DNA from: an uncultured Gemmatimonadales bacterium
GTDB lineage: Bacteria > Gemmatimonadota > Gemmatimonadetes > Gemmatimonadales > GWC2-71-9
Assembly (NCBI GenBank): GCA_963844035.1
Contig: CAWJMT010000013.1
Span: 1-13,988, forward strand
Reading direction: 5' to 3'
Length of the DNA: 13,988 bases
A program made the position numbers and the translations under genes. Numbering within the stretch: position 1 is the stretch's first letter; the number at the start of each line of letters is the position of its first letter. The notes below the pieces were generated by a model. The model was not told where the DNA came from, ran no database searches, and saw only the letters and a program-made list of their open reading frames with translations. Positions 2,829-13,465 of the stretch are shown in pieces.

Positions 2829-3337
2829 ATGTTCGCACGAAGCTCGAAAAAACTGATCGACGGCGTGGCGCTCGCCATCGCCGTGTTGCCCGTTCTCATT
2901 GTGGTGACCGCATGCCACGGCCCCGACTACTGCGATTGCGGGTCGTACGACACGTTCGCAGTAGAGGCAAGGGGCGCAAGGGTCGTTCCCCCCCGACCGA
3001 CACGACCCCCAGAGCCACGGGGATGTTCAACACCAGTTCGCTCGCGTACACGTACGTCGTCTGGACCCCGCCGGCGGGCACCATCGATTCGATTGCTCTC
3101 TACCAGGTTGCTACTGGCGATCCGCTTCCGCCGTCGGCGACGGCGATTCTATGCGCGGGCGTGGCGGCTTGCGCGAGCACCAGTGGCGTGGCGACTCTCG
3201 TGCCTCCGGCGACGTCGGCCACGATAAACACCTCGATGCGCGGGTACGGGACACAGTTGGTGTTCTTTACGACGACGGCTCAAAAGGCCGCCGGCGGCGC
3301 CATGCGGGGGACGCCGTATCCGACCCCGTATGACTAG
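2829..3337 (+). pseudogene. CHRD-like lipoprotein, paralogue 3, split by a frameshift at a C7 tract (pseudogene, phase-variable gene or sequencing error)
   Basis: AAGGAG then ATG 2829 gives MFARSSKKLIDGVALAIAVLPVLIVVTAC (lipobox)...GARVVPP. Homology to paralogue 2 continues in another frame after CCCCCCC 2988-2994 (PTDTTPRATGMFNT...GGAMRGTPYPTPYD*). One extra C gives a 169-aa protein. Hand count: 63/98 identities to paralogue 2 in the core. Confidence 0.8.
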
Positions 3338-3340
3338 GAC

Positions 3341-6298
3341 CTAGGTGCCGGGCGGCGTGGACAGTCGCGCCGCCGCTACCCCCCAGGCCCCGAGGTTGAG
3401 GGTCGCATGCCGGTCGGGCGCAATGCTGAGTGTGCCACTGTTGCGCTCGACCAGATCCACCCGGCGCGCCTGGGCAAAGGTGTACGCGGCGGGCCACACG
3501 CCCACCTGGCGCGACGTGCCCGCCACGTCGAGCAATTTGACGATCGCGCCCTCCCCGTCATCAGCGCGTTTGGCGCCGAGCACCATCGCTCCCGGATCGT
3601 TCACCAGCAAAGCGCTGTCCTTCCCGATCAGCGGACCGGTGCCCGCGCTCGTGAAGGGGGCGCTCACGTACAGCGGGTCGGCCGCTGCCCAGCCGCGGCG
3701 CACCGGCTCCGCTACGTCGCCACCGGTGCCGAGCAGCGAGAGACGAAACCGGCACCGCAGCTCGCCCCCCTGGCGCGCCGCGAAGTTCGCCGCCCAGTAG
3801 TTGTTCATCACGTAGGCGAACAGCGTCCCGTCCGGATCGATCCGCCGGCGCGCCGCTCCGCGGCAAATGTCGTTGAGCGTAAAGAGCGGGGTGTCGGGTC
3901 CGCTCCAGAGCACACCTTCCGTGCCCGCGTGCAGCCACACCCAGTGGGTGTGACAGTACCAATCCCGGCCGCTCCCAGGCTGTTGATCCTGCTCCACCGT
4001 CATCCGGCCGAGCGGTACCTCGACCTCCACGGTGGGCTTGGTGAGGGCGAACGGAAACGCGACGTAGAGCGCTTCCTTCTCGAGCGTCGCCGTCTTGGTG
4101 AATCGGTTCACGATGTCGATCCAGGGGAGCTCGTCGTACAGCGTCACTATCGAGGTCACGGACGGAAAGCCCGTCAATGCGCGCTCGGTCACGAGGCGCA
4201 CGCCGATCCCCGGGAGTCGCTCGCGGCGCGCTTTGACGAGAGTGCTCTGCGTGATCCGCAGCTCGGGTGGCGTGTTCAACCCCTCGCCCCCCGCCTCGGT
4301 CCAGAGCGCGCTGCGGCCGCCACCTGCGGCGTACACGATCTGGTTCAGACCCGACCAGGTGCTCGGGTTCACCCGTTCTTTTCCGTCCGGGCCCTTGAGC
4401 GAGCGGATCGCCCCGCTTCCGGGGTCGAGCGTGACGCGAAACCCACCCGCCTCGGCGTCCAGCGTCTCCCCGTCATCCACCGGCAGACTGGCCGGCCGGT
4501 CGCTCTCGGTGAGCCGGAGATATCCCAGGGCGGGGACATCCCGCATCAATACGAGGGCCGAGCCGTCGGGAAGATCAACGGAAGGGAACTCGCGGTCGCC
4601 GTAGGTAAGACGTCTGCCCGCGCCGAGACGCACCCGGGCGATGTCGCTGCGCGTCCAGCTCGATGCGTTGAAGACGACGCGCCCCATGCCCTTCTCCGTG
4701 CCTTTTCCGATGCGCAACAGTCCGTCGGCGAGCTGCTGCTCGACCGCCGCGCTGGCCGAGTCGAGATAGCGTTGCTTGTAGTGCCACTGCGCCACGGTCT
4801 GCCGGCCCTCGGGGTCGGAGACGCTGGTCCGTGCGCCCCAGGTATGCTCGCCGAACAGCAGCAGGTCTTGCCAGGCGTCACCCCGCTCGGCGGCCCGGTC
4901 TCGAACCCGCACTCCGCCGACGCCGTCGCGCGGCTCGGTGCGGTCGTCCCACAGCGCGAGCAGGTCGGCAGCCCGGGCCGCCAGCTGGAGGCTCCGGAAC
5001 AGCGCGAGCTCGGCAGCGGTGGACGCGGCGCCGTCTTCCTTATAACAGCCGGTGTCACCGCGCCGCACCGGGAGGCGGGTGCCGTAGCGCCGCTCGACCT
5101 CGCGGAAAAAGTCCTCGGCCCGCGCCTGCACGATGTTCGGGTAGGCGAAGCGCCGGTTGAACTCCTCGACGTTGTCCACCAGCCGCTCGTCCACCACTGC
5201 GTTCGTCCCCTGTGCCCCGTGGAGCAACGCGACGTCGTACGGGTAGCCCGGCGACAGCAGCACCGGATCAGACAGCAGCCAGTCGGACAAGCGCCGCGCC
5301 ATGACGTCGGCTCCCTGGTCGAATCCGAACCGCAGCCCGCTGCCGGTGCGCACGCCGCGCCAATGGAGCACGCGGCTGCCGTCCGGACCCTCCCACCAGT
5401 AGAGCTGGGGGTAAGTGGTCCACTGCCCGCTGAGGTGATAGCGCGCTGCGTCGTCGGGGTCGAGCAACGGCACGGCGCGCTCGGGATCCACGCTCGTGGC
5501 GAGGTAGCGGACGCCGCTCGCCGCGAGCAGGCTCGGGAACGTGGCCGGCTGCCCCGGGACGCCGCTGACCTGCGCGCCGGCAAAGGCGAGCCCGCGCTCG
5601 CGTGCCAGGCGCCCCGCGGGCCAGACCAGCCGCGCGTACGTCTCGTGGTCGAGCAACCCGGTGAGCAGGTTCGCGAACAGCGCCTGGAATCCGACCTTGC
5701 CATTGCGAATCGCCTGCAGCAGCCCGTCGACCGCCGGGTCGGACCGATTCTCCACGTAGGAGATCACCTGGTACGCGCACTCGGCCGTCCAGCGAGATGC
5801 GGGGTGCGCGGTCAGGCGGGCAACTGCGGCATCGAGGTTCGCGCGGTGGATCTCGATGCAGCGCTCCTGAAGGTCGGTCGAGCCGATGTCGGTGCGATTG
5901 GAGGCCAGCCAGTACAGCGTCCAGCGGCGTGGCGGGACCACGCGCACACGCGCGCGGGCCACGCGCTTCTTGGCGACTTCGACCTCGATCTGAAACTCGG
6001 ATGGACCGGGGAGGGGCACCCACACTTCGCCCGCGAGCACCGTTCCGGCACCGGTTGGCAGGAGGCCCGCCGTTCCCACCGGGGTGCCGCGGCGGTCGAT
6101 CACCCGCGCGCGGGCGGCGGGCGCGTCCAGCCCGGCGACCGTCACGCGCAGCAGGTTGTTGCGGCCGTCCGGTTGCTGGTACAATGGCGTCGCGCGCGCG
6201 TCGACCGTGACGACACCGCCGCGCGGCGAGCGCACCTCCGGTGCTCCGGCTGCCGCCGTCAATCCCATCCAACCCAGAAAACTGCGACGATCCGTCAT
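3341..6298 (-). CDS. Tat-exported glycoside hydrolase family 38 (alpha-mannosidase)-like protein, 985 aa, apparently degenerate active site
   Basis: Twin-arginine signal MTDRRSFLG with upstream GGAGG. GH38-like motifs TDIGSTDLQ, LYWWEGPDGSRVLHW, LLFGEHTWG, VVFNASSWTRSD, DVPALGY, KEALYVAFPF, VMNNYW and KRADDGEGAIVKL. Confidence 0.85.
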   Translation of the reverse strand: MTDRRSFLGWMGLTAAAGAPEVRSPRGGVVTVDARATPLYQQPDGRNNLLRVTVAGLDAPAARARVIDRRGTPVGTAGLLPTGAGTVLAGEVWVPLPGPSEFQIEVEVAKKRVARARVRVVPPRRWTLYWLASNRTDIGSTDLQERCIEIHRANLDAAVARLTAHPASRWTAECAYQVISYVENRSDPAVDGLLQAIRNGKVGFQALFANLLTGLLDHETYARLVWPAGRLARERGLAFAGAQVSGVPGQPATFPSLLAASGVRYLATSVDPERAVPLLDPDDAARYHLSGQWTTYPQLYWWEGPDGSRVLHWRGVRTGSGLRFGFDQGADVMARRLSDWLLSDPVLLSPGYPYDVALLHGAQGTNAVVDERLVDNVEEFNRRFAYPNIVQARAEDFFREVERRYGTRLPVRRGDTGCYKEDGAASTAAELALFRSLQLAARAADLLALWDDRTEPRDGVGGVRVRDRAAERGDAWQDLLLFGEHTWGARTSVSDPEGRQTVAQWHYKQRYLDSASAAVEQQLADGLLRIGKGTEKGMGRVVFNASSWTRSDIARVRLGAGRRLTYGDREFPSVDLPDGSALVLMRDVPALGYLRLTESDRPASLPVDDGETLDAEAGGFRVTLDPGSGAIRSLKGPDGKERVNPSTWSGLNQIVYAAGGGRSALWTEAGGEGLNTPPELRITQSTLVKARRERLPGIGVRLVTERALTGFPSVTSIVTLYDELPWIDIVNRFTKTATLEKEALYVAFPFALTKPTVEVEVPLGRMTVEQDQQPGSGRDWYCHTHWVWLHAGTEGVLWSGPDTPLFTLNDICRGAARRRIDPDGTLFAYVMNNYWAANFAARQGGELRCRFRLSLLGTGGDVAEPVRRGWAAADPLYVSAPFTSAGTGPLIGKDSALLVNDPGAMVLGAKRADDGEGAIVKLLDVAGTSRQVGVWPAAYTFAQARRVDLVERNSGTLSIAPDRHATLNLGAWGVAAARLSTPPGT

Positions 6299-6427: not shown

Positions 6428-6901
6428 ATGAAGTGCATGGCATTTGTCCTTGCCGTGTTCGCCATGGCCGGGTGTAAGAAGGGCGAGCAGCCCTCCTCCG
6501 CCGCTTCCGTGCCCGACACGTCCAGCCAGATGATGATGGCCGATACCTCCCACCCGATGATGTCCGACGTGCACATGAGTGCCGATTCGATCAGCGCGGA
6601 GCGGGGAGCGACCCTGTATAAGGACAAGGGGTGCGCCGCATGCCATAACATCGCCAAGGCTGGAGAAGAACCGCACCGGCGTCCCGGCGGAAAGCAGTCG
6701 GGTCCGGACCTGGGCGGCGTCACCGAGCGCCGGGACCGCGGCTGGTTGCGGCGGTGGTTGAAGGACCCGGACGCAATGCGCGTCTCAGACTCGACCGCGA
6801 TCGCGATGACGGCCGAGGCGAAGGGCCTCAAGATGCCGAACATGAAGCTGAGCGATTCGGAGATTGAGGCGTTGATCAACTATCTCGGGGTGAAACAGTA
6901 G
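6428..6901 (+). CDS. lipoprotein class I monoheme cytochrome c (157 aa)
   Basis: GAAGGAG RBS, lipobox MAGC, heme motif CAACH, GPDLGGV..RRDRGWLRRWLKDP and a candidate axial Met in LKMPNMKL. Confidence 0.9.
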   Translation: MKCMAFVLAVFAMAGCKKGEQPSSAASVPDTSSQMMMADTSHPMMSDVHMSADSISAERGATLYKDKGCAACHNIAKAGEEPHRRPGGKQSGPDLGGVTERRDRGWLRRWLKDPDAMRVSDSTAIAMTAEAKGLKMPNMKLSDSEIEALINYLGVKQ

Positions 6902-7187: not shown

Positions 7188-8198
7188 TCAGGCGGGGCCG
7201 GTGAAGGGCAGCGCGAAGGGAAGGCTCACCACGCGGGCGTCCCGACCCGCGGCGCGAACCACCATCCCGGCGTCCACCTCCCGGCGCACCATCGCGAGGC
7301 CGATCCAACGGCCTCCACCCGATATGCGCTGCTCGGGAATCCACGCGACGCTGGTCACCCGGCCCGCGTCCCGATCCTGGTAGATCACGCTGCCCACGCC
7401 GTCCGCCGGCTCGGCGTCGAACAACAGTCCACGGAGGTGGCGAGTCACGTGGCCGCGAAAATGGAGGCGCGAGACCGTCTCCTGCCCGGTGTAGCAACCC
7501 TTCGTGAACGACACACCACCCAGCTCCTCCAGCCGGACCTCCTGTGGGATCGTCTTCTCGTCCACTTCGGCACCGACTTGGGGCCATCCGCCGAGGATCC
7601 GCGCGCATTCGAGCGCCACGGGTCCGGCCGCGAGCACTCCGGCCGCCGAGAGCCGCTGAGCGACCGCGGCGGCGGCGGCCGCGGGAGCGGTGACCTGCAG
7701 GACGAACGGTGCCTGGTCACTGGCGCGCGCCACGTCGCATTCGGCGGCGTCGAGAGTCAGGGACAGTACCCGGCCCGCGCTGGGCGGGACCGCGAGGCCC
7801 GCCGCCTGGGCCTTCGCGAGCACCTGGGGCCCGGCCAGCCGGAACACCACAACCTCGTCCGTCCGGTCGCTGGTGCGCGCCAGGCGCGGCGGGATCGAGC
7901 GCGTGAAGATCGTGAACGCAGCCGGCCGCCGGTCGGCGGGCACGGTATAGGTCAGCGTCGTACCCTGCCGCGCAGCCCAGCCGTCCACCACGATCATGCC
8001 CTTGGGGGTGAGCATCGCTCCATAGGTGAACGCGCCGTCACCCGGCTTCTCGATGTCGTTGGTCAGCAGGCCCTGCAGCGATGCCGCCGCCCCCGGCCCG
8101 GCGAGGGTCAGGACGCCGACGTCGGCGCGCGCGAACACGGCTCCCGTTTGCAGCGCCGTAAACAGCACCGGCGTCACGGCGTCGGGGCCGAGCTTCAC
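7188..8198 (-). CDS. ygfZ: YgfZ/GcvT-family folate-binding Fe-S cluster maturation protein (CAF17/IBA57-like)
   Basis: Signature VSFTKGCYTGQE, plus LQGLLTNDI and LTPKG motifs. GTG 8198 overlaps the HAD stop (GTGA). Confidence 0.88.
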   Translation of the reverse strand: MKLGPDAVTPVLFTALQTGAVFARADVGVLTLAGPGAAASLQGLLTNDIEKPGDGAFTYGAMLTPKGMIVVDGWAARQGTTLTYTVPADRRPAAFTIFTRSIPPRLARTSDRTDEVVVFRLAGPQVLAKAQAAGLAVPPSAGRVLSLTLDAAECDVARASDQAPFVLQVTAPAAAAAAVAQRLSAAGVLAAGPVALECARILGGWPQVGAEVDEKTIPQEVRLEELGGVSFTKGCYTGQETVSRLHFRGHVTRHLRGLLFDAEPADGVGSVIYQDRDAGRVTSVAWIPEQRISGGGRWIGLAMVRREVDAGMVVRAAGRDARVVSLPFALPFTGPA

Positions 8199-8869
8199 CA
8201 CACGAACAGCTCGGCCGGTTCGTGGCCGGTGAACGAGTGCCACACCGCGTCTGCCTCCGAGAGGGTCGCCGGATCGTGGCTGGTGCTGAGCATCGTGCAG
8301 CGCAGGCCGGCGGCACGTGCGGCAGCGAGGCCGGGCAACGAATCCTCGATCGCGACCGAGCGGCTCACCGCCAGGGGCCGGCGCGCGGAAAGTGCTGCGA
8401 GGGCGGCCTGGTAGCCTTCGGGGTCGGGCTTACAGCGTGCCACGTCTTCCGCGGCGACGACGACCTCGAAATGGCGGCGCAGGCCGGCGCGGTCGAGCAC
8501 CTGATCGATCTCCCGCCTCAGGGCACCCGACACGATGGCCAGCCGCCAGCCCGCGGCGGCGCGCGACACGAACTCCACCGCGCCCGGGACCAGCGTGAGC
8601 GATTCGGCGATCAGTCGCTCGTAGCGCCGCGACTTCTCGGCGACGAGCGCGTCGAGACGCTGGTCTGCGAGCGGCTTGGCGGCGCGCTGGAACGCGGCGA
8701 CGAATGACATGCGGTCGTTCCAGCCGAGGTACTCCTCGTAGTACTGCGCGCGCGTGAGCGCAATTCCTTCGTCGGCCAGCAGCGCCTCGAGGGTGATGCG
8801 GTGCTGCTCCTCGTCGTCCACGATCACGCCGTTGAAGTCGAACAGGATCGCGCCGCCCGGATCATTCAT
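8195..8869 (-). CDS. HAD-superfamily phosphatase (subfamily IA, beta-PGM/CbbY-like)
   Basis: Motif I FDFNGVIVD, motif II IVSG, motif III KPDPEGY and motif IV IEDSLPG. Confidence 0.9.
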   Translation of the reverse strand: MNDPGGAILFDFNGVIVDDEEQHRITLEALLADEGIALTRAQYYEEYLGWNDRMSFVAAFQRAAKPLADQRLDALVAEKSRRYERLIAESLTLVPGAVEFVSRAAAGWRLAIVSGALRREIDQVLDRAGLRRHFEVVVAAEDVARCKPDPEGYQAALAALSARRPLAVSRSVAIEDSLPGLAAARAAGLRCTMLSTSHDPATLSEADAVWHSFTGHEPAELFVW

Positions 8870-10145
8870 AGAACCCCGCTACGCGATACGACTCGTCCAA
8901 CAGCTCGACCGGATGGCGTGCGCGCGCCGAAATGCCGGCGGCGGCGAGCCCCGCGCCGAGCTGCATCAGACACCCGGGGTTGCCCGTCGCGACGACCTGC
9001 GGCGCCGCCTCGCGCAGCGACGCGAGCTTGGGGCCGAGCACCGCGCGTGACATCTCGGGCTGAACGAGCGTGAACAGGCCGGCGCTGCCGCAGCATTGGT
9101 CGGCGTCAGGCGTCGAGACCAGCTGCAGGACCGGAATCGCCTGAAACAGGCGCAGCGGCGCGTCCGCAATGCGCTGCGCGTGCAGCAAGTGGCAGGGGGG
9201 GTCGTACGCGACCCGGAGGTCCAGCGGGGCGCCGGGCACCGGGCCGCGCTCGGCCAGCAGCTCGGAGACGTCGCGGACCCGCGCGGCGAATTGCTCCCCG
9301 CCGGAGGCGGGGAGCAAATGCCCGTACTCCTTCATTGCCGCCCCGCACCCGGCGCTGTTGACGACGATGGGTGCGTCTCCGTCCCCAAACGCCGCGACGT
9401 TGCGGCGGATGAGCGCCTGTGCCTTCGGGGCGAGCCCCGCGTGTACGTGCAACGCCCCGCAACACACCTGCCCGGGCACCTCCTGCACATCGTACCCGTT
9501 CACCGTGAGCGTGCGGATCGTGGCCGCGTGCACGTGGGCGAAGTAGCCGTCCATGATGCAGCCGCGGAACAGCAAGACGGTTGGGCGGTCGGGCGGTCGG
9601 GCGGTCGCGGATGCTGTGCGCGCTTTGACCGCCTGACCGCCTGACCGCCTGCCCGCCGGTCTTGTCGCCGCGAGCATCCCCATCGCGAACCGCAGCGATC
9701 CCCATCCCGCGAGCCACCCGGGAATCCCGGTCGCGCGTAGCATGCGGCCGAGTGCGTACACCACGCGGGACAGTCCGGGTGTCGTGAAGGCGCTCAAGGC
9801 CGCACGCGCGAGCCAGGGGAGCGGGCGGGCGTCAGCGATCATCTCCCGCGCCGCTTCGAGGCCGCGCCCGTAGCCCACGCCGGACGGGCACACGGGCTCG
9901 CAACCGCGGCACCCCAGGCAGCGATCGAGGTGGGTGGCCACGAACGGATCGTCCGGAGCGAGCTGACCGCGCTCGAGCGCGCGCATCAGCTCGATGCGCC
10001 CGCGGGGGCTGTCGGCTTCGTCGCCCGTGGCGAGAAACGTCGGGCAGGCTTGGAGGCAGAACCCGCAGTGCACGCAGGTGTCGAGGGCCGCGAATCCCCC
10101 CCGCGGTTTGGGGGGGGTGCCTGCAGCGTCAACCGGCACGGTCAT
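8862..10145 (-). CDS. glcF: glycolate oxidase iron-sulfur subunit GlcF
   Basis: Two 4Fe-4S motifs (CVHCGFCLQACP, CLGCRGCEPVCPSGV) and two CCG domains (LFRGC...VCCGA; PCHLLH...CCGSAG...NPGC). It follows glcDE; start ATG 10145. Confidence 0.9.
   Translation of the reverse strand: MTVPVDAAGTPPKPRGGFAALDTCVHCGFCLQACPTFLATGDEADSPRGRIELMRALERGQLAPDDPFVATHLDRCLGCRGCEPVCPSGVGYGRGLEAAREMIADARPLPWLARAALSAFTTPGLSRVVYALGRMLRATGIPGWLAGWGSLRFAMGMLAATRPAGRRSGGQAVKARTASATARPPDRPTVLLFRGCIMDGYFAHVHAATIRTLTVNGYDVQEVPGQVCCGALHVHAGLAPKAQALIRRNVAAFGDGDAPIVVNSAGCGAAMKEYGHLLPASGGEQFAARVRDVSELLAERGPVPGAPLDLRVAYDPPCHLLHAQRIADAPLRLFQAIPVLQLVSTPDADQCCGSAGLFTLVQPEMSRAVLGPKLASLREAAPQVVATGNPGCLMQLGAGLAAAGISARARHPVELLDESYRVAGFYE
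9576..9657. repeat. inverted pair of 8-bp tandem repeats inside glcF
   Basis: GACGGTTG + (GGCGGTCG)x3 at 9576-9607, an 18-bp spacer, then (TGACCGCC)x3 + TGCCCGCC at 9626-9657. The arms are near reverse complements. Confidence 0.9.
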
Positions 10146-11352
10146 CGCTTTCGATCGCGACCGCGAGCGAGTTGCCCGGATCGAAGGTGCTGCGCAGGCC
10201 GGCGACCAGCGGCCCGACCCCCTCGCGGTAGGCACCGAAGTGTCCCACCGCGCGGCGCAGGGGCCAGGGAGCCCGTTCGACGGTGAGCGGCACTTCGAGG
10301 ACCGCGAGGGCGCGCCGCAGGCGCCGTAACCGATCGACCGACGCATCGCCCGCCCACCGTAGCGTGCCGACTCCCGGGCTCGCCGACACCCACTCATCCC
10401 CCACTTGATGCTGGACCAGGTCGAGGAGCTCGTCGCTCGAGTCGGGCAGGCCGCCGATCCGGAACGTGACCGGGCGGGTGGCGAACGTTTCCGCGGCGCG
10501 CATCCAGAACGCGTGCGCTTCCTCGGCGCGCAGCGCGGTGAACAGCCCACCCGTGGCCGCGCGCAGCCCTGCCTCCTCGGCCGCGACGAGCGGAGCTGAG
10601 CCCGCCAGGCGGACGGCGAGCGCCCACCGCTCGCGGCGCGCCAGCGCGGGCGACAAGAGCTCCAACGCGGCCAGCGTCAGGCCGGCGGCGCTGATGTCGT
10701 CGCCCATCCGCGACAGATCCTCGCGCGAGCCCTCGAGGATCAGCGTCTGGTCCACGCGCGGCAGGGCGCGCAACCGCAGGTGCACCAGCACGATCACGCC
10801 GAAGGCCCCGAACCCGCCCGCCTGCATGCGGGTGAGATCGTATCCGGCGACATTCTTCATCACGCGGCCGCCGCTCTGAATCAGGCGCCCGTCGCCGGTC
10901 ACGAACGTCACCCCGAGGAGATGGTCGCGGACCGGGCCGAACCCGTGGCGCAGGGGGCCCGCGGTCGCCGTCGCGATCACGGAGCCGAGGGTGCGGCCCG
11001 CCAGCCCGGGCGGATCGAGCGCGAGCCAGACCCCGTGGTCCGCCAGCTGCTGGCGCAGCTGGTCGCAGCCGATCCCCGCTTCCACGGTCGCCGTGAGGTC
11101 CTGGGGCTGGATCGAGGGGACACGATCCAGCCGCCGCGTGGTAAGGGCGAGGTCGGCGGGCGCGTCGGCCTGCATCCACGTCCCAGCGCCTTCGACCCGG
11201 ACCCGCCAGCCTTCGGCGCGTGCGGTGCCCAGCAACAGCGCGACGCCGTCGGGCGACGCCGGTGCAATCCGCGGCACGCCGTCCGGCGTACCCGTATCCT
11301 CGAGCACGGCGTCCCCGCCGAGCAGCGCACGCACCCGCTCCGCGATCTTCAT
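10129..11352 (-). CDS. glcE: glycolate oxidase FAD-binding subunit GlcE
   Basis: FAD_binding_4 motifs DLTATVEAG, TLGSVIAT, GPLRHGFGPVRD and GGRVMKNVAGYDL, with C-terminal FDP. ATG 11352 overlaps the glcD stop (ATGA). Confidence 0.88.
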   Translation of the reverse strand: MKIAERVRALLGGDAVLEDTGTPDGVPRIAPASPDGVALLLGTARAEGWRVRVEGAGTWMQADAPADLALTTRRLDRVPSIQPQDLTATVEAGIGCDQLRQQLADHGVWLALDPPGLAGRTLGSVIATATAGPLRHGFGPVRDHLLGVTFVTGDGRLIQSGGRVMKNVAGYDLTRMQAGGFGAFGVIVLVHLRLRALPRVDQTLILEGSREDLSRMGDDISAAGLTLAALELLSPALARRERWALAVRLAGSAPLVAAEEAGLRAATGGLFTALRAEEAHAFWMRAAETFATRPVTFRIGGLPDSSDELLDLVQHQVGDEWVSASPGVGTLRWAGDASVDRLRRLRRALAVLEVPLTVERAPWPLRRAVGHFGAYREGVGPLVAGLRSTFDPGNSLAVAIESDDRAG

Positions 11353-12779
11353 GAATTCCGCACTCCGGTCACTCCAGCCCACTCACGACACGCATGCACG
11401 GGGATCACCTTGCCGGGGTTCACGCGCTCCGCGGGATCGAACACGCGGCGCACCGCGTGCATGGCCGCGAGCGAGTCGCCATCGAAGATGTGCGGCATGT
11501 AGCGCAGCTTGTCGAGTCCGATGCCGTGCTCCCCGGTGATGGTGCCCCCCGCGGCGATACACGCTGCCATGATCTCCCCACTCGCCGCCTCCACCCGCTC
11601 CATGAGGCCGGGGGTGCGGCTGTCGAACGAAATGTTGGGATGCAGGTTGCCGTCCCCGGCATGGAATACGTTGCTGACCCGGAGCCGGTAACGCGCGGCG
11701 ATCTCACCGATCATTTCCAGCACGTCGGGCAGGGTCGAGCGGGGAACCACCGCGTCCTGCACTACCAGGTCGCGTGACAGCCGGCCCATCGCACCGAACG
11801 CCTTCTTGCGTCCCTGCCATAGCCGCGCGCGTTCCCCTGCGTCCGCCGCGGTGCGCACCGACCGCGCCCCGTGCGCCATGAGGATCGCGTGCACGCTTTC
11901 CGCTTCCGCCTGGACCGCGGCGTCGTCGCGGCCATCCAGCTCCGTGAGCAGGACCGCGGCCGCGTCGCGGGGATACCCGGCCGCGTACACCGAGTCTTCG
12001 ACCGCACCGATGCACGACTGGTCCATCATCTCGAGCGCCGCGGGCACGATACCGCTCGCGATCACGGCCGACACCGCCGCTCCGGCGGTCCGGAGCGAGC
12101 TGAAATCCGCGAGCAACGTGCGCACCGCCCGTGGCACCGGGAGCAGCCGCACGGCGATGCGCGTGGCGAGGCCGAAATTTCCCTCCGAGCCGGTGAACAG
12201 GCCGACCAGGTCGGGCCCCCAGGGTTCGCCCCCCGGGCTGCCGAGTTGAACCACCTGCCCGTCCGCGAGCACGACCTCGAGCGCGAGCAGGTTGCTGACG
12301 GTCGCCCCGTACTTGAGGCAGTGAGGCCCACCCGCGTTCTCCGCCACGTTGCCGCCGATGGTGCACGCGGTTTGACTCGACGGGTCGGGGGCGTACAGCA
12401 GGCCGTGTGGCGCGGCGGCGGCCGACAGTTTGACGTTCACCACCCCGGGCTCCACCACTGCGAAGCGGTTCACGGGGTCGATCGTGAGGATGCGATTCAG
12501 GCGGGTGAGCACGATCAGCACCGCGCCCTCGCCCGCGAGCGCGCCGCCCGACAGCCCGGTCCCGGCCCCGCGCGGCACGAAGGGCACGCCATGGATCGCG
12601 AGCAGCCGAATGATGGCGATGACCTCGTCGCGGCTGCCGGGAAGCACGACCACTCCCGGGAAGCTGGTGTGGGTCGTCAGCCCGTCCATGGCATACGTGG
12701 CCCGCTCGGCGGTGGCGGTCCGGGTGTGCGCCGGCCCGACGATTTGCGCCAGTGCGTTCACCAGGGCGCGGTCGATCAC
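11349..12779 (-). CDS. glcD: glycolate oxidase subunit GlcD (FAD-linked oxidase)
   Basis: PRGAGTGLSGGA, YAPDPSSQTACTIGGNVAENAGGPHCLKYG, GSEG, NVFHAGDGNLHP and GGTITGEHGIG. GTG 12779 overlaps the upstream stop (GTGA). Confidence 0.92.
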   Translation of the reverse strand: MIDRALVNALAQIVGPAHTRTATAERATYAMDGLTTHTSFPGVVVLPGSRDEVIAIIRLLAIHGVPFVPRGAGTGLSGGALAGEGAVLIVLTRLNRILTIDPVNRFAVVEPGVVNVKLSAAAAPHGLLYAPDPSSQTACTIGGNVAENAGGPHCLKYGATVSNLLALEVVLADGQVVQLGSPGGEPWGPDLVGLFTGSEGNFGLATRIAVRLLPVPRAVRTLLADFSSLRTAGAAVSAVIASGIVPAALEMMDQSCIGAVEDSVYAAGYPRDAAAVLLTELDGRDDAAVQAEAESVHAILMAHGARSVRTAADAGERARLWQGRKKAFGAMGRLSRDLVVQDAVVPRSTLPDVLEMIGEIAARYRLRVSNVFHAGDGNLHPNISFDSRTPGLMERVEAASGEIMAACIAAGGTITGEHGIGLDKLRYMPHIFDGDSLAAMHAVRRVFDPAERVNPGKVIPVHACREWAGVTGVRNS

Positions 12780-13465
12780 GTCGCGGGCTCGATGTGGGGA
12801 CGGGCGCCGCCACGGCCGTTCCGCCCGGCCCGCTCGTGCACCACGGCGCGCTGCTCCGCTTCGACGGTGAGCGGCTCGAGCAGCCGCACCAGCTGGCTCA
12901 GGCGCGCGGTGGTGCTCTGGGTGGCGAGCAGCGCCTGCTTGGCCGCTGCTTCGAGCTCGAGGGCCGCCGCCACGCGGAACGACAGCGCGGCGGGATCGGC
13001 GGGAAGGTCGACCGGTATCGCGGCGTCGTGCCCGGCCAGGGTGCCGAGGGCCTCCGTCAGACCGCGAAACCCGCGGCGCACGGCGGCGGCCAGCGCGCCT
13101 GCCTCGTCCGGCGCCGCGGCGTCGTCGTCGAACTCTTCGACGAGCGCCCGCCGGTAGAGCCGTTCGTCCGGGCACCATTGCAGCAGGCGGAACCGTCGCT
13201 CGCCGGCGGTCAGAATGTCGGACCGCCCGTCGGGGAGCGGGTGACTCGCCTGGATCACCGCCACGCAACCGACTTCGCCCGGGCTCGGCATCGGATCTGC
13301 CCCGGCGGCCGTCCGGGCCGGGACGTAGACGATCCCGAAGCGGCGGTCACCCGCGAGGCAATCGGCCAGCATCTGGCGGTAGCGGGGCTCGAAGATGTGC
13401 AACGCCTGCGGGGCTCCGGGAAACAACACCAGCGGCAGCGGAAAAATCGGAAGCTCACGGGGCAT
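12776..13465 (-). CDS. stand-alone LON peptidase substrate-binding (N-terminal) domain protein
   Basis: LPIFPLPLVLFPG...LHIFEPRYRQMLADC...FGIV, DGRSDI..GERRFR and KQALL. No ATPase or protease domain. Confidence 0.9.
   Translation of the reverse strand: MPRELPIFPLPLVLFPGAPQALHIFEPRYRQMLADCLAGDRRFGIVYVPARTAAGADPMPSPGEVGCVAVIQASHPLPDGRSDILTAGERRFRLLQWCPDERLYRRALVEEFDDDAAAPDEAGALAAAVRRGFRGLTEALGTLAGHDAAIPVDLPADPAALSFRVAAALELEAAAKQALLATQSTTARLSQLVRLLEPLTVEAEQRAVVHERAGRNGRGGARPHIEPAT

Follow-up and report, generated by a model that had tools for sequence, protein, structure and literature searches.

The stretch of DNA analysed here (hereafter the window) comprises 13,988 nucleotides of an uncultured Gemmatimonadales bacterium – the whole of one contig (C13; GenBank CAWJMT010000013.1) of a genome (G000; GCA_963844035.1) that is 83.7% complete and 3% contaminated – and carries on its reverse strand a gene for a 985-residue protein, P0001. 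By fold and sequence profile P0001 descends from glycoside hydrolase family 38 (GH38), yet it fails the tests that mark an active member of that family. We consider it a candidate pseudoenzyme, predicted to be exported, that would serve as scaffold or adaptor by way of surfaces lying outside the old catalytic pocket, and give this reading a probability of about 0.62. The evidence that carries it is a loss of residues specific to the pocket and common to a whole clade, purifying selection on the members of that clade, and an independent clade from which the pocket has been deleted; together these argue for the maintained non-catalytic protein that a sequence-only reading of the window had proposed.

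The active site

Residues were placed by mapping a family sequence profile onto Ams1 of S. pombe and onto the solved structures 3lvt and 5kbp. Ams1 holds its zinc by H290, D292, D402 and H615 (PMC7609781). Its nucleophile is proposed to be D402 and its acid/base is D493; the substrate contacts are W295, Y460 and D616. The available portions of the papers on the Drosophila enzyme (PMC13204073) and SpGH38 (PMC2815779) describe the same scheme. The relevant positions of P0001, all on the reverse strand, are as follows, with the state of each column among 92 distant full-length relatives where it was counted.

5894..5896, reverse strand: R135, codon CGC, in place of the zinc-ligand His (Ams1 H290), within SNRTDIG at 5882-5902; His in 92/92
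5888..5890, reverse strand: D137, a zinc-ligand position that is kept (Ams1 D292); Asp in 92/92
5879..5881, reverse strand: S140, in place of the stacking aromatic (Ams1 W295; Tyr or Phe in the parent subgroup); Tyr or Phe in 92/92
5561..5563, reverse strand: G246, codon GGC, in place of the Asp that is both nucleophile and zinc ligand (Ams1 D402); Asp in 92/92
5486..5488, reverse strand: D271, a clade-specific change from Asn; Asp in 13/13 clade members, Asn in 86/92
5345..5347, reverse strand: T318, in place of the substrate-binding Tyr (Ams1 Y460); Tyr in 91/92
5204..5206, reverse strand: T365, codon ACG, in place of the acid/base carboxylate; Asp in 78 and Glu in 14 of 92
5039..5041, reverse strand: K420, in place of an invariant Trp at a presumed pocket position; Trp in 92/92
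4835..4849, reverse strand: EHTWG of the helical bundle, with H485 kept (fourth zinc ligand, Ams1 H615); His in 91/92
3788..3790, reverse strand: A837, in place of a Thr present in 85/92

Where a GH38 enzyme presents His, Asp, Asp and His to the metal, P0001 has Arg135, Asp137, Gly246 and His485; opposite the nucleophile D402 of Ams1 stands Gly246, and at the acid/base position Thr365. Two of these assignments are less direct than the rest: H485 meets Ams1 H615 by a two-residue extension beyond the aligned end, and also meets the corresponding His of 3lvt; T365 was mapped not to D493 of Ams1 directly but through 3lvt and 5kbp, in which its counterpart is the Asp of GVDHQP. We take that Asp, from its motif, to be the acid/base. 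On this alignment P0001 has neither catalytic carboxylate, keeps two metal ligands of four and has lost the aromatic contacts. With nucleophile, acid/base and a zinc ligand absent, the protein is predicted to be catalytically dead, and hydrolysis of the GH38 type has very probably been lost; since columns invariant in 92 of 92 distant relatives are among those affected, the losses are not chance drift at variable sites.

The by-eye alignment of the sequence-only reading had the right register: the profile sets its columns on H290, D292 and D402 of Ams1, and on HSHWD, DTFG and DH of an E. faecalis GH38. Its codons at 135, 246 and 365 are exact, and EHTWG is intact as it had stated. It had measured the metal motif against HSHxD; Arg does replace the zinc-ligand His, whereas the first His is not diagnostic in this subgroup (His in 37/92 relatives). 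The losses that it named were real but its list was incomplete, missing S140, D271, T318, K420 and A837.

A second contig of the same bin (C32:8200-21677) is about 90-95% identical to the window; duplication at this level within one bin means that one of the two contigs probably comes from a sister population. Its copy of the gene, 93% identical, has the same Arg, Gly and Thr codons, and a further metagenome locus (L079) reads CGC, GGC and ACC at the three sites. Because Arg, Gly and Thr recur in these copies, and the disarmed state is common to 13 of 121 homologous proteins, base-calling error does not account for them. Small indels occur in 7 of the 13 genes compared on C32, two of them – each of one base – in the GH38-like gene; this spread over many genes suggests assembly error rather than decay of this gene in particular.

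Fold, domains and signal

The AlphaFold2 model of P0001 has a mean predicted local distance difference test score (pLDDT) of 93.1, and among the Foldseek matches listed the first 40 ranks are all GH38. The best structural alignment is to 5kbp (Z 28.3, root-mean-square deviation 3.3, 754 residues), and the model has the alpha/beta barrel, three-helix bundle and C-terminal beta domains that define the fold.

3341..6298, reverse strand: coding sequence of the GH38-fold protein P0001, 985 aa
6311..6315, reverse strand: GGAGG, resembling a ribosome-binding site, 12 nt ahead of the ATG (from the sequence; homologues also begin MTDRR)
6215..6298, reverse strand: predicted twin-arginine translocation (Tat) signal region, aa 1-28, with D-R-R-S-F-L
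5933..6214, reverse strand: N-terminal seven-stranded beta-sandwich domain, aa 29-122 (strands from the model)
5039..5932, reverse strand: GH38 alpha/beta barrel with disabled pocket, aa 123-420
3344..4693, reverse strand: C-terminal beta domains, aa 536-985

Membership is harder to see from sequence. P0001 alone has no match in Pfam, NCBIfam or the PDB sequences, and it does not reach the curated cut-off of PF01074; close orthologues score 30-39 bits, above that cut-off, and most of the 120 homologues listed (64-83% identity) carry the domain. A PDB search with a profile built from close homologues only found no match and a wider profile was required: one of 142 sequences matches the solved GH38 enzymes with a best E of 2e-32. 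For the N-terminal domain the term 'Ig-like' would rest on the strand count in the model.

The frame (3341-6298, reverse strand) translates into 985 residues with no internal stop and was thus correctly described as intact. The Tat signal that had also been claimed is supported by a twin-arginine motif, R4-R5-x-F7, at 6278-6289 of the reverse strand: each of R4, R5 and F7 is at least 90% conserved among 60 long forms, and the short forms described below have them too. The hydrophobic stretch is short, and export and cleavage are predictions. Contigs from one RNA run cover the gene, and they also cover 28 of 30 bins of the window (90-99% identity), so that DNA carry-over is possible and they are no proof of expression.

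A clade of disarmed proteins

The named relatives are Gemmatimonadales metagenome-assembled genomes, and in a tree of 112 long orthologues – built with ten site columns left out – P0001 falls in a clade of 13 members (support 0.996). H135, Y140, D246, Y318 and D365 are absent from all 13, which answers the question, raised by the sequence-only reading, of whether orthologues share the substitutions. The remainder of the protein is little affected: 76 columns are at least 85% conserved among the 92 distant relatives, and the clade keeps 66 of them (kept meaning present in at least 10 of the 13). Those lost throughout the clade are 135, 140, 246, 271, 318, 420 and 837; of the other non-kept columns two are different throughout the orthogroup and one varies, and D365 is lost in addition. 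Partial losses recur outside the clade: counted over all 112 long orthologues, changes at the five core columns number 7, 9, 8, 12 and 2, and the median for 65 other conserved columns is 0 (Mann-Whitney p = 5e-4, a nominal value given that neither columns nor sequences are independent).

Several other sequences deserve mention. A congeneric long form (L233, on G231:C114, the same record as L213) has Pro at 135, Gly at 246 and Arg at 485. Records titled Actinobacteria and Myxococcales hold orthologues at 66-68% identity (L188 and L208). The ESM Atlas contains a 958-aa Chloroflexota-rich cluster in which PF01074 is found in only 12% of members, possibly another degenerate GH38 lineage.

Purifying selection

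Ratios of non-synonymous to synonymous change (dN/dS) are Nei-Gojobori estimates from GC-rich genes. Between P0001 and the C32 copy dN/dS is 0.097 (46 non-synonymous and 154 synonymous differences), and 0.107 for the barrel alone; seven neighbouring genes compared between the same contigs give 0.037-0.179, a range that leaves out four genes with too few changes and one that was misaligned. Within the clade the ratio is 0.155-0.272 in 26 of 28 pairs (two near-identical pairs were dropped), where two of the loci, L077 and L078, cover the C-terminal part only and were placed in the clade on the strength of identity alone; pairs drawn from 82 motif-intact orthologues span 0.062-0.352. The clade of P0001 is maintained by purifying selection, much like its motif-intact orthologues, as the dN/dS comparison suggested by the sequence-only reading was intended to discover. 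P0001 combines two of the features that mark a pseudoglycosidase: an enzyme fold with its catalytic residues lost, and maintenance by selection.

Orthologues without a pocket

The gene is matched in 66 of 121 genomes of the family: some 26 of these, counted from the table of matches, have the long form and most others match patchily. The patchy matches are intact open reading frames of 711-793 aa (32 examined), found across at least 16 genera. Twin-arginine signal, N-terminal domain and beta domains are all still present in them, and approximately residues 133-150, 163-188, 452-510, 655-680 and 810-840 are missing. Metal loop, NNYW loop and EHTWG segment are among the parts deleted. None of the family motifs HxDxG, EHTW and NYW is present in the short forms checked (19 and 13), and PF01074 has no match in the four scanned; the one short form that was modelled (pLDDT 88.9) still finds GH38 as its first structural match.

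The short forms are orthologues by position: at all 16 long-form loci compared, a gene for an AAA+ ATPase comes after the gene and ygfZ before it, and of 19 short-form loci 15 have the ATPase and 10 have ygfZ in these places. They evolve with a dN/dS of 0.14-0.23 in the seven pairs close enough to measure. In a quick mixture-model tree they form a clade of their own beside the long forms – a placement that long branches could distort – and their loss of the pocket therefore appears separate from that in the clade of P0001.

Where retained function may reside

If selection acts on something other than the pocket, the comparison of long and short forms indicates where to look. What the two forms have most in common is the N-terminal domain, which is 42% identical between them, the barrel being 26%; in outgroup pairs the order is reversed (20% and 39%, the 20% being rough because the outgroups were trimmed). 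Columns common to long and short forms at 85% or more number 18 of 92 in the N-terminal domain and 8 of 228 in the barrel, and this domain holds 8 of the 17 invariant columns. The alternation of residues along the strands suggests that L49, R51, R63, R65, E91 and W93 point outward from the sandwich. Of 86 family genomes 37 have the domain, at one copy per complete genome, and matches in two other families were weak and confined to 4 of 114 genomes; a search of the Atlas with it gave leads that were all under 0.9. In the accessible text on Ams1, extra N-terminal parts mediate tetramer formation (PMC7609781): a precedent for a structural role, not evidence here.

The history that we envisage starts from an ancestor at this locus that would have been a working exo-glycosidase with a second job. 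When hydrolysis was no longer required, the pocket could have decayed, by point changes in the clade of P0001 and by loop deletions in its sister clade. The space left by metal and sugar would now be occupied by Arg135 and Lys420, paired with the remaining carboxylates, and the protein, after its predicted export by the Tat route, would bind through the N-terminal beta-sandwich and the outer surface to a partner that may be a protein, P0001 itself or an envelope polymer. Still bolder, and held at rather less than even odds, is the claim that within one bacterial family a GH38 glycosidase became an envelope protein with a purely non-enzymatic task, with all the stages – intact enzyme, partly eroded site, fully disarmed site (P0001) and pocket-deleted form of 770 residues – extant at one locus, and the new function placed on the N-terminal beta-sandwich with a specific conserved partner.

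A number of observations weigh against the scaffold reading. All five core residues are intact in 66 of the 112 long orthologues and in 56 of 70 genome loci (3 partial), so that many long orthologues may still be enzymes. A role confined to the surface would not require that D137, E484 and H485 stay in place or that R135, G246 and D271 be nearly fixed, as they are. At low divergence the barrel is slightly looser here, with a dN/dS of 0.107 against a median of 0.058 in intact pairs. The gene is also dispensable: it was not found in 55 of the 121 family genomes, and in three – G078 (of the same genus and 98% complete), G012 and G007 – the gene profile finds nothing and 0.5-1.4 kb separates the flanking genes. 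The conserved residues of the N-terminal domain could form an internal domain interface instead of a binding surface, and no binding partner was found for P0001.

Alternative explanations

The sequence-only reading had offered a glycan-binding or scaffold role, or altered chemistry, and of these a scaffold fits best. That P0001 is lectin-like – no longer cutting, but holding a glycan, perhaps an anionic one by way of the new Arg and Lys, in the old pocket – is unlikely. The idea draws on D137 (12/13 of the clade), E484 (13/13), H485 (12/13) and N366, all of which are kept, on R135 (12/13) and K420 (8/13), and on known pseudoglycosidases that, in the accessible part of a review, keep glycan binding (PMC7828330). 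However, the zinc that binds the 2- and 3-hydroxyls of the sugar is gone, as are the equivalents of the stacking Trp and Tyr, and such losses weaken the case for glycan binding in the old pocket; moreover the residues at 140, 318 and 837 vary freely inside the clade, and the short clade is under selection even though its pocket loops have been deleted.

Slightly less plausible again is that the gene is a relic in slow decay, its cutting useless and only its capacity to fold preserved while it is expressed, with deletion ahead. Clean loss from the three genomes named above, numerous scattered partial losses, the two one-base indels of the C32 copy and the different set of losses in the congener G231 are all as such a relic would predict. 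But dN/dS stays at 0.10-0.27 out to dS near 1, short forms are intact in at least 16 genera, and the C32 indels, spread as they are over 7 of 13 genes, point to assembly error.

Altered chemistry, in which D271, D137, E484, H485 and R135 would run another reaction in a metal-free or re-wired site, finds little support and we regard it as very improbable. D271 is present in 13 of 13 members and R135 in 12 of 13, H485 and E484 are kept, and the parent subgroup itself has Thr where solved GH38s carry a sugar-binding Asp. Against this, the six residues on either side of position 246 include no carboxylate, the changes of His to Arg and Asp to Gly are single-base transitions that recur outside the clade (L018, P0015), and the short clade has no pocket to re-wire. 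Finally, that the enzyme is normal and its sites misread or misaligned – P0001 alone lacks sequence matches, and the window has a near-duplicate elsewhere in its metagenome bin – is scarcely credible given identical codons in independent assemblies, a gap-free alignment at the His and nucleophile sites with homologues 65-83% identical, and an unambiguous fold.

Neighbouring genes

The AAA+ ATPase has weak matches of the chelatase type. A VWA partner gene was considered for the downstream cluster and rejected: the gene after the ATPase encodes an SPFH/Band 7 protein. Reading the function of P0001 from its neighbours was likewise abandoned: the ATPase persists in G078, G012 and G007 without the gene, and is non-adjacent in 4 of 19 short-form loci.

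In the lineage of P0001 the gene and the ATPase are separated by two related small open reading frames without a Pfam match (334-801 and 2912-3337, both forward strand; the former has a Cys like that of lipoproteins), a beta-barrel gene (1851-2666) and an unannotated frame (853-2064); a similar pair of small frames follows the gene in L078 and L079. On the other side a c-type cytochrome gene (6428-6901, forward strand) stands head to head with the GH38-like gene. L082, L088 and L151 match only the first 48 residues of the cytochrome, and a related contig from run X1 skips the cytochrome gene. Further upstream a conserved run on the reverse strand (7188-13465) comprises a gene with a LON-substrate domain, glcD-, glcE- and glcF-like genes, an HAD hydrolase and a ygfZ-like gene; loci that lack the GH38-like gene still have this run.

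Comparison with known systems

An active paralogue next to the gene was not found: the only PF01074 match in the genome is an unrelated GH38 of different architecture. This ordinary GH38 (L005, at G000:C37:170710-171450) has intact HTHWD, PDAFG, ADHH and FHD and no evident signal peptide. Our literature search, which left most subscription papers outside its reach, found no GH38 pseudoenzyme, Gemmatimonadota included; the Bacteroides GH38s described in the available part of one study are active only (10.1101/2022.07.15.500217). A member of the disarmed clade (P0002) is labelled an alpha-mannosidase by its source, and glycosidase counts for this group of bacteria may for that reason overstate its capacity to degrade sugars.

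Set against solved GH38s (E. faecalis 5kbp and 3lvt, S. pyogenes SpGH38 2wyh, S. pombe Ams1 6lz1 and Drosophila Golgi mannosidase II), P0001 superposes over some 750 residues of barrel, three-helix bundle and C-terminal beta domains at 11-15% identity. It keeps two of the four zinc-ligand positions; nucleophile, acid/base, one zinc-ligand His and two aromatic contacts are replaced, and an N-terminal beta-sandwich and a twin-arginine signal are added. Its parent subgroup (PF01074; HxDxGY, DVP, DN, EHTWG and NNYW), with Atlas clusters in Acidobacteriota, Bacteroidota and Planctomycetota, is 22-34% identical to P0001 over the full length, and the structural columns are all kept; the subgroup retains every catalytic column (91-92 of 92) and P0001 does not.

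The closest parallels lie with the pseudoglycosidases YKL-39 (GH18), klotho (GH1) and Plasmodium CyRPA (GH33-like), each of which, in the accessible part of a review (PMC7828330), keeps a whole fold and has lost its catalytic residues. Klotho and CyRPA are described there as serving in protein complexes, and by analogy P0001 would most likely work in a similar manner. Unlike these proteins, P0001 is bacterial and of another fold family, and its group lost the residues repeatedly, beside orthologues with intact motifs and a sister clade that deleted the pocket. The orthogroup thus offers matched active-looking, disarmed and pocket-deleted versions: a natural series for the passage from enzyme to scaffold.

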